This document shows positions 2,139 to 4,281 of a stretch of 64,000 nucleotides of DNA, in pieces (position 1 is the first letter of the stretch; every line of letters starts with the position of its first letter). A model generated the notes under the pieces. The model ran no database searches. It worked only from the letters and a program-made list of their open reading frames with translations, and was not told the DNA's origin. The stretch lies in sequence record OR999189.1; one strand, given 5' to 3'. Source of the stretch: Enterobacteria phage P922. The translations under genes were made by a program, and so were the position numbers.

Positions 2139-2627
2139 ATGAATATATTTGAAATGTTACGTATAGATGAAGGTCTTAGACTTAAAATCTATAAAGACAC
2201 AGAAGGCTATTACACTATTGGCATTGGTCATTTGCTTACCAAAAGTCCATCACTTAGTGTTGCCAAATCTGAATTAGATAAAGCTATTGGACGTAATTGC
2301 AATGGTGTAATTACAAAAGATGAGGCTGAAAAACTCTTTAATCAGGATGTTGATGCTGCTGTTCGCGGAATTCTGAGAAATGCTAAATTAAAACCAGTTT
2401 ATGATTCTCTTGATGCTGTTCGGCGCTGTGCATTGATTAACATGGTTTTCCAAATGGGAGAAACTGGCGTAGCAGGATTTACTAATTCTCTACGTATGCT
2501 CCAACAAAAACGCTGGGATGAAGCAGCAGTAAATCTAGCCCAATCTAAATGGTATCGTCAGACACCTAATCGCGCGAAACGCGTAATCTCAACATTTAAA
2601 ACAGGAACTTGGAAAGCGTATATATGA
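2139..2627 (+). CDS. e: T4-type endolysin (lysozyme, gene e)
   Basis: Protein [35 protein letters not shown]... is near-identical to T4 lysozyme as I recall it. Confidence 0.97.
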
Positions 2628-2905
2628 AAACATATAGTGAATTTTTATCAGAATCTATTCTTAACGAAGCTACTGACACATTTGCAACTAAGTTAGGTGC
2701 AGCTTTGGTTGAAGCCGAAAGTCTATTAGCACGTATTTCTGAACTTGCTAGTAAGATAGATACTCGCAAATTTGAACGTACCAGCGATATCGTTAAGCTT
2801 GAAGCCTTGTTGCGTATGTGCGATAAACCGGAAGAAATCGCTAAGAACGGCTCGCTAATGAAACAACGTCTTGAAAAATATATTTCAGGCGCGTCAGAAA
2901 AATAG
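2624..2905 (+). CDS. internal protein (capsid-targeted) variant
   Basis: Begins [10 protein letters not shown], the T4 internal-protein capsid targeting sequence pattern; ATGA overlap with e stop. Confidence 0.7.
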
Positions 2906-2963
2906 TGTTTACTTCCTCCAAGGGTTTTGATACTATACATTCATCAACTACTTGGAGGAAATT

Positions 2964-3377
2964 ATGACCCGTATCAATTTAACACTTGTTTCTGAATTGG
3001 CCGACCAACATCTTATGGCTGAGTATCGTGAATTACCACGCGTATTTGGTGCAGTCCGTAAACATGTTCAAAACGGTAAATGTGTAAAGGATTTTAAAAT
3101 CTCTCCAACATTTATATTAGGCACAGGTCACGTAACATTCTTTTACGACAAACTCGAATTTTTACGTTTACGTCAAATCGAGCTAATCGCTGAATGCTTG
3201 AAACGTGGTTTCAAAATCAAGGACACGACTGTCCAGGATATTTCCGACATCCCTGCCGAATTTCGTAATAATTATGTCCCGGACGAAGCGTCCATTGCGA
3301 TAAGTCAAGCACGCTTAGATGAAAAAATTGCTCAACGTCCTACTTGGTACAAATACTATGGTAAATCAATTTACTAA
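2964..3377 (+). CDS. denV: endonuclease V, pyrimidine dimer DNA glycosylase (DenV)
   Basis: [34 protein letters not shown]... matches T4 DenV; GGAGG RBS before ATG 2964. Confidence 0.92.
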
Positions 3378-3389
3378 GGAAAAATTAAA

Positions 3390-3644
3390 ATGTATCAAGA
3401 ATTTATCGCTGAAGCAGATGCCAAAGGCCCCAAATTTAAAGTTAAAGCTTTCATTGGTGATGCCGAAGATTTTGGCTCATTAAAACGTAATGGGTATTCT
3501 TTCTCAGGCGGCAATGGTAAAGAAATAAACACCTATGCAAAACGTAGTGAAATTGCTTATGTTGTAGTAAGCCCTAAAGTAGATGTTGACGATATTGGAT
3601 ACGATTTTAACAACTTCGGAATTATTTCTGGCGGTAAAGCTTAA
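3390..3644 (+). CDS. internal protein-like small protein
   Basis: Starts MYQEFIAEA, a CTS-like motif lacking the KT dipeptide; 84 aa. Confidence 0.55.
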   Translation: MYQEFIAEADAKGPKFKVKAFIGDAEDFGSLKRNGYSFSGGNGKEINTYAKRSEIAYVVVSPKVDVDDIGYDFNNFGIISGGKA

Positions 3645-3705
3645 ACAGTTTACGCTTAAGTATTAATATGGTATAATTACTCTATCAAAACAAACAAGGA
3701 AACAC

Positions 3706-4281
3706 ATGAAAACGTATAAAGAATTTATCGCTGAAGCTTCTGTGGAAAAGGCCAAAGGCATTAATAAAGATGAGTGGACTTACCGAGGAAATGGTTTTGA
3801 CCCTAAAACAGCCCCTATTGAACGATACTTAGCTACAAAAGCTTCCGACTTTAAAGCTTTCGCTTGGGAAGGACTTCGCTGGTGTACTGATCTAAATATT
3901 GAAGTTGATGGGCTTAAATTTGGCCATATTCAAGATGTTGTTGCTAGTAACTTGGACGCAGCTTTTGTTAAAGCTGACGGTGACCTTCGTCGCTGGAATT
4001 TAAAATTATTCTCTAAACAGAAAGGCCCAGTGTTTGTGCCTAAAGCTGGTAAATGGGTTATTGATAATAAATTAGCTAAGGCTGTCAACTTCGCCGGTCT
4101 TGAATTTGCCAAGCACAAATCGGCATGGAAAGGTCTTGATGCAATGGCTTTCCGTAAAGAATTCGCCGAGGTTATGACTAAAGGCGGCTTTAAGGCAGAA
4201 CTAGATACCTCTAAAGGTACGTTTAAAGACGCTAATGTTCAGTATGCTTACGCCGTTGCTAATGCAGCCCGTGGTAATTAA
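3706..4281 (+). CDS. ipIII: internal protein III-like (IPIII)
   Basis: MKTYKEFIAEASVEKAKGINKDEWTYRGNGFDPKTAPIERYLATKASDFKAFAWEGLRW... resembles T4 IPIII; CTS present. Confidence 0.8.
   Translation: MKTYKEFIAEASVEKAKGINKDEWTYRGNGFDPKTAPIERYLATKASDFKAFAWEGLRWCTDLNIEVDGLKFGHIQDVVASNLDAAFVKADGDLRRWNLKLFSKQKGPVFVPKAGKWVIDNKLAKAVNFAGLEFAKHKSAWKGLDAMAFRKEFAEVMTKGGFKAELDTSKGTFKDANVQYAYAVANAARGN

Follow-up and report, generated by a model that had tools for sequence, protein, structure and literature searches.

Three genes with a capsid-targeting leader around denV in the e-to-vs.8 internal-protein region of Enterobacteria phage P922

Internal proteins of T4-like phages are packed in the head and enter the host before any phage gene is expressed. 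In the DNA of Enterobacteria phage P922 analysed here (64,000 nucleotides of record OR999189.1, called the window below), three genes with the leader known as the capsid-targeting sequence (CTS) lie around denV, the gene of endonuclease V. The initial annotation of this DNA described them as a rearranged internal-protein locus and proposed that its divergent members are candidate anti-restriction factors with new specificity. The question is thus whether the locus holds internal proteins of a new kind in a new arrangement, or is one state of a variable region that is already known. The second answer is probably the right one: the locus appears to be the hyperplastic "internal protein" region between e and vs.8 in a Tequatrovirus that belongs to the EcNP1/Nami species, with cassette-shuffled Ip genes whose products are expected to have a T4-like fate. 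The window is 99.6-99.7% identical in DNA sequence to phages Nami (vB_EcoM_Nami, MZ502380) and EcNP1 (NC_054910). It contains no new kind of element, and its gene families, its variability and the anti-restriction hypothesis are all found already in databases and in the literature.

Gene order at the locus and in relatives

The three open reading frames were confirmed at the positions given in Table 1, and the gene order of the window is nudE - e - ipA - denV - ipB - ipIII - vs.8. In the T4 record, the order is e - ipIII - ipII - denV - vs.8. Both the coordinates and the comparison with the T4 record therefore agree with the initial description of three CTS genes around denV in an order unlike that of T4. 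The site itself is the one that the ipIII-ipII locus occupies in T4, between e and vs.8; denV is present in both and IPIII is orthologous (92%), and the genes of both loci are short ORFs that have nothing in common but the MKTY.EF(I/L).E leader and its gp21 site. The two loci differ in that denV lies upstream of ipIII in the window, whereas in T4 it lies downstream of ipII. In addition, ipII is absent from the window, a gene of the Ip5 family is translationally coupled to e, and a gene of the ipB family follows denV. On the DNA level, the T4 e.3-e block is 91% identical to the window up to position 2622, next to the point at which the ipA start overlaps the stop codon of e (ATGA). No T4 counterpart to 2623-2927 or 3374-3695 was found by DNA comparison with T4, and T4 homology restarts at 4321, with 94% identity from there onward. 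Between the two unmatched segments, denV is a diverged allele, with 79% DNA identity and 91% protein identity to T4 denV.

Table 1. Features of the e-to-vs.8 locus and its borders (positions in the window)
Feature	Position	Strand	Evidence
Two exact T4 late-promoter motifs TATAAATA, just upstream of e	2105-2112 and 2118-2125	+	motif scan
e, T4-type lysozyme, 162 aa	2139..2627	+	Pfam PF00959, E 2e-13
ipA, predicted internal head protein, Ip5 family, 93 aa	2624..2905	+	phrog_3499
PeSL-type cassette upstream of denV, early promoter inside stem-loop	2907..2960	+	inverted repeat I22 and RNA fold
denV, endonuclease V, pyrimidine-dimer glycosylase, 137 aa, diverged allele	2964..3377	+	PF03013, E 4e-14; phrog_1183, E 2e-61
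ipB, predicted internal head protein, shortened leader, 84 aa	3390..3644	+	phrog_2667
Early-type sigma-70 promoter upstream of ipIII, TTTACG-17 nt-TATAAT, extended TG	3649..3677	+	10/12 match
ipIII orthologue, 191 aa, leader MKTYKEFIAE	3706..4281	+	phrog_5341, E 1e-115
Short GC hairpin after ipIII, AGGCC-loop-GGCCT, terminator-like	4284..4301	+	-9.4 kcal/mol, z -2.5
vs.8 homologue, conserved right border of the variable locus	4459..5001	+	phrog_1488

The word "rearranged" is justified as far as it says that the locus differs from T4, but it takes T4 as the reference. The whole 2.35-kb block is collinear in 73 phage records against 31 with the T4 order, and 62 records have ipB joined directly to ipIII. 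EcNP1, vB_EcoM_Nami and about 70 other Tequatrovirus records have the identical gene order, with 99.6-99.7% DNA identity along the entire locus, and show essentially no difference, except that an additional CTS cassette (X), ipII or an ipB with a frameshift is found in some relatives. Even the Salmonella phage STP4-a, which belongs to another genus (Gelderlandvirus), has the order of the window, e - IP - denV - IPs - ipB - IPIII - vs.8, with an ipB homologue of 70% and an IPIII homologue of 75% identity. STP4-a differs in its first cassette, which is another CTS protein, in an inserted Ip4-like cassette and in the full length of its ipB leader. Because the order, though unlike T4's, is common among sequenced relatives, the locus is an ordinary one. 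From these comparisons, the T4 arrangement seems more likely to be the derived state. Other cassette sets are found at the same site, such as ip4 alone in T2, RB14 and RB32, or ipA-denV-ipB-X-ipIII-ipII in W143. Polymorphism of the internal proteins of T-even phages was described by Repoila et al. (1994, as cited in PMC3012670 and PMC12373910).

Leaders and families of the three predicted internal proteins

When all 64 kb of the window were scanned in six frames, a CTS-like N-terminus was found in just three ORFs, namely ipA (MKTYSEF..), ipB (MYQEFIAE) and ipIII. The DNA coding for the leader forms a direct-repeat family of three copies (D1; 2624-2655, 3384-3415 and 3706-3737). Since the leader is exclusive to these ORFs and is also a DNA repeat family, the clustering of CTS genes is not due to chance, and chance CTS-like N-termini were rejected as an explanation. 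All three genes lie between e and vs.8, which is one of two Ip loci, the other being downstream of 57B. By mutagenesis, Tyr4 and Phe7 of the leader were found to be required for targeting, and cleavage by the prohead protease gp21 requires L/I at position 8 and Glu at position 10 (review, PMC9026906). Equivalents of these four residues are kept in ipA, ipB and ipIII. In ipA, the sites of the gp21 type (L/I-X-E) are LSE, whose last residue is number 10, and LNE, whose last residue is number 15; ipB and ipIII have IAE, which ends at residue 8 and at residue 10, respectively. If the T4 paradigm applies, the leader would attach each Ip to the prohead's scaffolding core, gp21 would remove the leader after Glu10 or Glu15 in ipA, Glu8 in ipB and Glu10 in IPIII, and the mature Ips would be injected along with the DNA.

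Only the 191-aa protein had been thought to resemble IPIII, and alignment bears this out: it aligns with T4 IPIII along its whole length at 92% identity (192 residues, E 1e-132), with 90% DNA identity. T4 Ip3 inhibits GmrS1/GmrSD2 of ECOR17 (PMC12373910), and IPIII is needed on this host and acts in the host cytoplasm (PMC9391042); in IPIII mutants, head assembly is slowed (PMC9026906). By orthology, the IPIII of the window would help head assembly and would block a type IV restriction system like that of ECOR17, which is made up of two genes (GmrS1/GmrSD2).

The two short proteins are not new: both fall into existing families, and in RefSeq these genes are already annotated as internal head or internal virion proteins. 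The ipA product matches phrog_3499 over all of its profile (E 1.2e-46, positions 1-85 of 85). T2 Ip5 belongs to the same PHROG (E 1.8e-47) and is 48% identical to ipA over the full length by BLASTP (E 5e-23). The match of ipB to phrog_2667 covers residues 1-82 (E 6.9e-19), and this PHROG also holds T2 Ip7 (E 5e-41). When ipB was compared directly with T2 Ip7 by BLASTP, the match was out of register and fell short of significance (E 0.022), and the pair shows no significant similarity outside the leader. In T2, the two genes stand in the same relative order, within the ipI locus (57B-ip5-ip7-trna.4). This is the other IP locus, however, and in the window ipA and ipB are split by denV. Pfam and NCBIfam have no family for ipA, ipB or ipIII, a PDB sequence search gave no meaningful match, and a word-indexed protein search returned near-identical phage proteins only. 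An exhaustive HMMER search with ipB against 1.84 billion representatives gave six matches, all of them fragments or other small CTS-bearing proteins on contigs of less than 1 kb. The distant metagenomic relatives of ipB also begin with CTS-like leaders.

Structure prediction gave no functional clue for either short protein. The AlphaFold2 model of ipA is all-helical, with three helices and a pLDDT of 72.7, and Foldseek found no significant match to it in BFVD or PDB (best E 0.6 and 7, respectively). The model of ipB, built on a shallow alignment, was unusable (pLDDT 50). Among relatives, synonymous sites of ipA are 5-16% diverged and its amino-acid sequence is invariant: each of four comparisons gave 3-9 synonymous differences and 0 non-synonymous ones. 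The dN/dS value is 0.16 for ipB, against the W143 allele, and 0.22 for ipIII. For these reasons, ipA, ipB and ipIII are regarded as real genes under constraint.

Possible roles of ipA and ipB

In T4, each of Ip1, Ip2 and Ip3 inhibits a distinct GmrSD enzyme (PMC12373910). Because all three are specific GmrSD inhibitors, it is reasonable to regard ipA and ipB as candidate host-range determinants of T4-like phages used in therapy, and both may likewise be injected first-response inhibitors of host defences. The anti-restriction hypothesis for ipA and ipB is a reasonable one, and published work in the field already proceeds from it (PMC3012670; PMC12373910). When ip4-ip10, including Ip5 and Ip7, were assayed, none of them reproducibly inhibited any of the GmrSD groups tested (PMC12373910). 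The sequences of ip4-ip10 are absent from the supplements of Silas et al., so that Ip5 and Ip7 can be compared with ipA and ipB as relatives only, and a literature search on Ip4, Ip5 and Ip7 returned inositol-phosphate papers only. It is conceivable, although we rate the chance as low, that ipA is an injected inhibitor of a host defence outside the GmrSD enzymes tested so far, with ipB possibly a second such factor. If true, ipA would carry the internal-protein paradigm past type IV restriction.

Alternatively, ipA and ipB could be general fillers of the head core or DNA-associated proteins, assisting the scaffold or neutralising charge as in part of the IPIII role, and have no specific host target. 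The slower head assembly of IPIII mutants and the lack of reproducible anti-GmrSD activity of ip4-ip10 are in line with this, and the invariance of the ipA protein among relatives fits a structural interaction as well as an arms race. However, once the leader is taken off at the most distal of the motif sites counted, the pI is about 8.9 for ipA and 8.2 for ipB, less basic than the 9.3-9.7 of T4 and T2 Ips, and the W143 allele of ipB is acidic (pI 4.9). Moreover, whole cassettes are gained and lost between close relatives, a pattern that fits accessory host-range factors better than it fits a structural requirement, and the specificity of all three characterised T4 Ips is also against this assumption. 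We consider a pure filler role rather improbable.

For ipB, there is also the question of whether the gene still contributes to the virion. Its leader is without the first two residues after Met (canonical residues 2-3), because the ancestral start at 3384-3386, which is ATG in W143, ECO07P1, UFV13 and Lutter, has become ATT in the window and in EcNP1. Homologues elsewhere have full leaders: MKMYQEFIAE in W143, MKTYQEFITE in P0002 and MKTYEEFINE in STP4-a. In ECO07P1, UFV13 and Lutter, the frame is broken by indels in a poly-T run, and some records hold C-terminal fragments of ipB alone (phrog_35655). Since the start codon and two leader residues are lost and three relatives are frameshifted, ipB may be dispensable or decaying; in the extreme case, it would be a non-functional cassette, poorly translated or targeted, with no part in the virion. 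Against this, the ORF is intact in the window, where the T-run is interrupted (TATTCTTTC) and the frame is therefore stabilised. The in-frame ATG at 3390 lies 9 nt past the ribosome site AAGGA and is better spaced from it than the ancestral ATG. The equivalents of the residues for targeting and cleavage are still present, the low dN/dS was obtained against an intact allele, and the frameshifts in the other records could be homopolymer sequencing errors. Loss of function in ipB thus appears doubtful.

That the two short proteins are simply orthologues of IPI and IPII in the standard T4 arrangement, as the shared leader taken alone would favour, has practically no chance of being correct: the alignment to T4 IPI and IPII that had been called for shows similarity in the leader only (BLASTP confined to the first ~11 residues for IPII and the first ~23 leader residues for IPI), the PHROGs differ (4363 for IPI and 7857 for IPII, against 3499 for ipA and 2667 for ipB), the segments that carry the two genes are those without T4 DNA counterpart, and the near-identical EcNP1 has a true IPI (99% identity) at a separate ipI locus, so that this orthology was ruled out.

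Promoters, stem-loops and probable cassette shuffling

Differences in gene order would have arisen by shuffling of cassettes, through recombination at repeated elements that combine an early promoter with a stem-loop (PeSL) and at the ~40-nt repeats of ribosome site plus leader that open every ip gene. Where relatives differ by cassette X, the difference is bounded by AAGGAAACA..ATGAAAACGTATAAAGAATTTAT repeats. PeSL-mediated shuffling has been published, and comparison of T4 with PST gave five IP differences (PMC2839356; PMC4122927). The early-promoter consensus of PeSLs is TTTACW-N17-TAYWAT (PMC4122927), and the element upstream of denV has TTTACT-17 nt-TACTAT, with GTTTAC at 2907-2912 and the -10 box at 2931-2936. 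Its stem arms (2913-2922 and 2951-2960) form the perfect 10-nt inverted repeat I22, the 3' arm contains the ribosome-binding site of denV, and the predicted fold has -19.1 kcal/mol (z -3.6). T4 denV is preceded by an equivalent structure with a different stem sequence. Thus, as in the PeSL cassettes described before (Arbiol et al., 2010; Comeau et al., 2014), a promoter of this type lies within a stem-loop between cassettes, in a hyperplastic region whose adjoining genes vary between close relatives. The difference is that in the window the stem-loop accompanies only the denV-proximal element. The ipIII-proximal element is a promoter alone: no stem-loop was found at 3649-3677, where the fold is like that of shuffled sequences (z -0.12). 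An Rfam search of positions 1-9000 gave no match.

The only exact TATAAATA late motifs near the locus are those upstream of e, where a late promoter is annotated at the same place in related phages; these motifs could drive late transcription of e and ipA. For ipB and ipIII, early-type promoters are present, together with a late motif with one mismatch (TATAATTA) at 3672-3679.

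Gene layout and identity of the proteins

The phage belongs to Tequatrovirus, and positions 2100-4450 are 99.7% identical to vB_EcoM_Nami and 99.6% to EcNP1. Checking the ORFs against the T4 reference, in which the order is nudE - e - ipIII - ipII - denV - vs.8, bore out the coordinates of the initial annotation and its claim that the order differs from that of T4. Four T4-homologous blocks were found by blastn, which detected no T4 counterpart of 2623-2927 (ipA) or 3374-3695 (ipB). The DNA of denV (79% identity) falls far below the flanking blocks (90-94%), and its protein is still 91% identical. 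From sequence comparison, the denV allele is judged much older than its surroundings and the locus a mosaic.

Coordinates of genes, T4-homologous blocks and the ipB poly-T region
Feature	Position	Strand	Remark
nudE	1647-2102	+	
e, lysozyme	2139-2627	+	
ipA	2624-2905	+	93 aa
denV	2964-3377	+	
ipB	3390-3644	+	84 aa
IPIII orthologue	3706-4281	+	191 aa
vs.8 homologue	4459-5001	+	vs.7 and vs.6 come next
T4 e.3 to e block	637-2622		91% identity (blastn)
denV block	2928-3373		79% DNA identity (blastn), 91% in protein
ipIII block	3696-4298		90% identity (blastn)
vs.8 onward block	4321-7256		94% identity (blastn)
ipB poly-T region in relatives	L008:1591-1707, L009 (UFV13):1592-1844, L010:1593-1848		equivalent to window 3490-3515

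The 191-aa protein is 92% identical to T4 IPIII over its full length and matches phrog_5341 (E 1e-115), which identifies it as the IPIII orthologue. It was also claimed at first reading that no other protein here resembles IPIII, and this stands. The possibility that ipA and ipB are simply IPI and IPII orthologues fails, because their similarity to T4 IPI and IPII is confined to the leader. By family membership, neither is an orphan. The full length of ipA matches phrog_3499 (E 1e-46), a family that also contains T2 Ip5 (48% identity to ipA, E 5e-23). ipB matches phrog_2667 (E 7e-19), to which T2 Ip7 belongs; since direct comparison of ipB with Ip7 gave no significant similarity, this link is treated as remote. 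Both genes are annotated as "internal head protein" in EcNP1 (RefSeq); the locus is a known, already annotated variant. EcNP1 carries IPI (99% identical) at a separate ipI locus, outside the region matching the window, so that the phage probably encodes IPI, IPIII, ipB and an Ip5-like protein but not IPII.

Capsid-targeting leaders and integrity of the genes

When the whole 64 kb was scanned in six frames, only these three ORFs had an N-terminus of the capsid-targeting (CTS) type. The leader-coding DNA is a direct-repeat family of three copies (at 2624, 3384 and 3706). The leader of the IPIII orthologue is MKTYKEFIAE. Mutagenesis of the IPIII leader assigned targeting to residues 4 and 7 and processing to residues 8 and 10, and the prohead protease gp21 cleaves after L/I-X-E (reviewed in PMC9026906). 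Equivalents of Tyr4, Phe7, L/I8 and Glu10 are retained in all three ORFs. By the scan, the repeat family and these critical residues, the three leaders proposed in the initial annotation are real.

The leader of ipB is two residues shorter. The repeat register places the ancestral start codon at 3384-3386, which reads ATT in the window and EcNP1 and ATG in W143, ECO07P1, UFV13 and Lutter. Translation must therefore begin at the next in-frame ATG, 3390, 9 nt downstream of an AAGGA ribosome site. The leader is full-length in homologues more distant from ipB (MKTYQEFITE in P0002, MKTYEEFINE in STP4-a).

Against four relatives, ipA shows zero non-synonymous and 3-9 synonymous differences, a constraint equal to that of the adjacent lysozyme; dN/dS is 0.16 for ipB (against the intact W143 allele) and 0.22 for ipIII. 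In ECO07P1 (5 T), Lutter (7 T) and UFV13 (a 2-base deletion) the ipB frame is lost at a poly-T run, which has 6 T in W143. In the window a C interrupts the run (TATTCTTTC, 3490-3515 equivalent) and the gene stays in frame. The frameshifts in the relatives may be sequencing errors in a homopolymer, or may reflect true decay or on/off switching.

Promoters, cassette boundaries and gene order among relatives

In the ipA-denV gap, an early promoter (TTTACT-17 nt-TACTAT) lies inside a stem-loop whose 10-bp stem pairs perfectly (fold -19.1 kcal/mol, z -3.6). The architecture upstream of T4 denV is the same (-18 kcal/mol, z -4.4), the stem there having another sequence with compensating changes. This element is a PeSL cassette, an early promoter embedded in a stem-loop. 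PeSLs have been described as mediators of module shuffling among T4-type phages; for the T4/PST pair, in which five IP differences were noted, the consensus is TTTACW-N17-TAYWAT (PMC2839356, PMC4122927). Upstream of ipIII is an early-type promoter (10/12 match, extended TG), at which no stem-loop was found. Exact late-promoter motifs (TATAAATA) occur near the locus only twice, just upstream of e, and none was found there for ipB or ipIII. The stop of e and the start of ipA overlap (ATGA), so that ipA can ride late e transcripts.

Among phage records, 73 contain the whole 2.35-kb block in a single place, 62 contain the direct ipB-to-ipIII junction, and about 238 have ipA (at least 80% identity) adjoining e. 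The T4 block e-ipIII-ipII-denV occurs in only 31, of which 23 are at least 99% identical and therefore presumably T4 itself or near-identical phages. The window gene order is not unusual.

Other relatives carry other cassette sets. In T2, RB14 and RB32 the order is e - ip4 - vs.8 and denV is absent from the locus; T2 vs.8 is split in two fragments. W143 has e - ipA - denV - ipB - X - ipIII - ipII. Cassette X (104 aa, canonical leader, MKTYKEFIAES...) lies between ipB and ipIII in W143 (L007:1910-2224) and UFV13 (L009:1908-2222) and is absent from the window. It belongs to phrog_3966, labelled "unknown function"; given the leader, this family seems to comprise internal proteins that have not been annotated as such. 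Comparison of UFV13 with W143 places the presence or absence of X exactly between two AAGGAAACA..ATGAAAACGTATAAAGAATTTAT copies, that is, ribosome site plus leader. From these breakpoints the leader repeats are likely recombination sites, and cassettes would be gained and lost by recombination at such repeats.

In W143, 3' of ipII (L007:3290-3377), a PeSL precedes ATGACTCG, which corresponds to the initial codons of denV and is fused to GATGAAAAAATT...TGGTATAAGTATTAA, a stretch similar to the denV 3' end. This remnant has the appearance of a second denV copy, shortened by an internal deletion, at the place that the gene has in T4, and suggests tentatively that an ancestor carried denV in both places. 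In the Salmonella phage STP4-a (Gelderlandvirus) the order is endolysin - CTS protein - denV - Ip4-like - ipB homologue (70% identity) - IPIII homologue (75%) - vs.8. The denV-first, IPIII-last arrangement is therefore common to two genera, and that of T4 is more plausibly the derived one. On a metagenomic contig (L017:3-860), the C-terminal end of a T4-like lysozyme gene directly adjoins, with stop and start overlapping, the gene of a distant ipB-family member (34% identity; its leader is MKTYNEFIAE); another CTS protein, of 132 aa, comes next. This extends the cassette combinations at this site.

Probable function of the internal proteins, and neighbouring ORFs

Variability of this locus has reportedly been described since 1994. 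While the initial annotation held for leaders, order and IPIII, the anti-restriction role that it proposed for divergent internal proteins is the field's existing hypothesis: that every cassette of the two Ip loci is a defence inhibitor has already been stated (PMC12373910; earlier review, PMC3012670). Each of T4 Ip1, Ip2 and Ip3 inhibits its own type IV restriction system of the GmrSD family and gives no cross-protection, the target of Ip3 being the two-gene GmrS1/GmrSD2 system of ECOR17 (PMC12373910, PMC9391042). No new interaction of ip4-ip10 with a panel of GmrSD groups was reproducible (PMC12373910). By orthology, the window IPIII most likely has Ip3 function, and it is a reasonable inference by analogy that ipA and ipB are candidate anti-defence proteins. 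Structure and remote homology gave no functional hint for either. With the leader cut at the furthest motif site, both are less basic (computed pI about 8.9 for ipA and 8.2 for ipB) than T4 and T2 Ips (9.3-9.7). What value remains in the locus lies in these two as uncharacterised, candidate injected anti-defence proteins.

Four consecutive small ORFs in the T4 e.2-e.5 region (92-1665; 92-475, 423-836, 818-1180, 1177-1665) look like tandem paralogues. The last three have hydrophobic stretches, and in these a motif F-V/I-x-E/D-C/S-R... is C-terminal (examples are FVSDCRKIK and FITECRKLK). A similar motif in 92-475 lies about 15 residues short of the end. The vs.8 homologue (4411-5001 in this reading) contains GGRQSGKS, a motif of Walker-A-like form, and weakly resembles AAA domains as well as the N-terminal domain of the terminase large subunit (Pfam E 0.01-0.04; phrog_2 E 8e-6). 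The Nami record calls the gene at this site "RegB", and in SP1 the features covered by the match include one labelled "large terminase subunit"; both look like mis-annotations.
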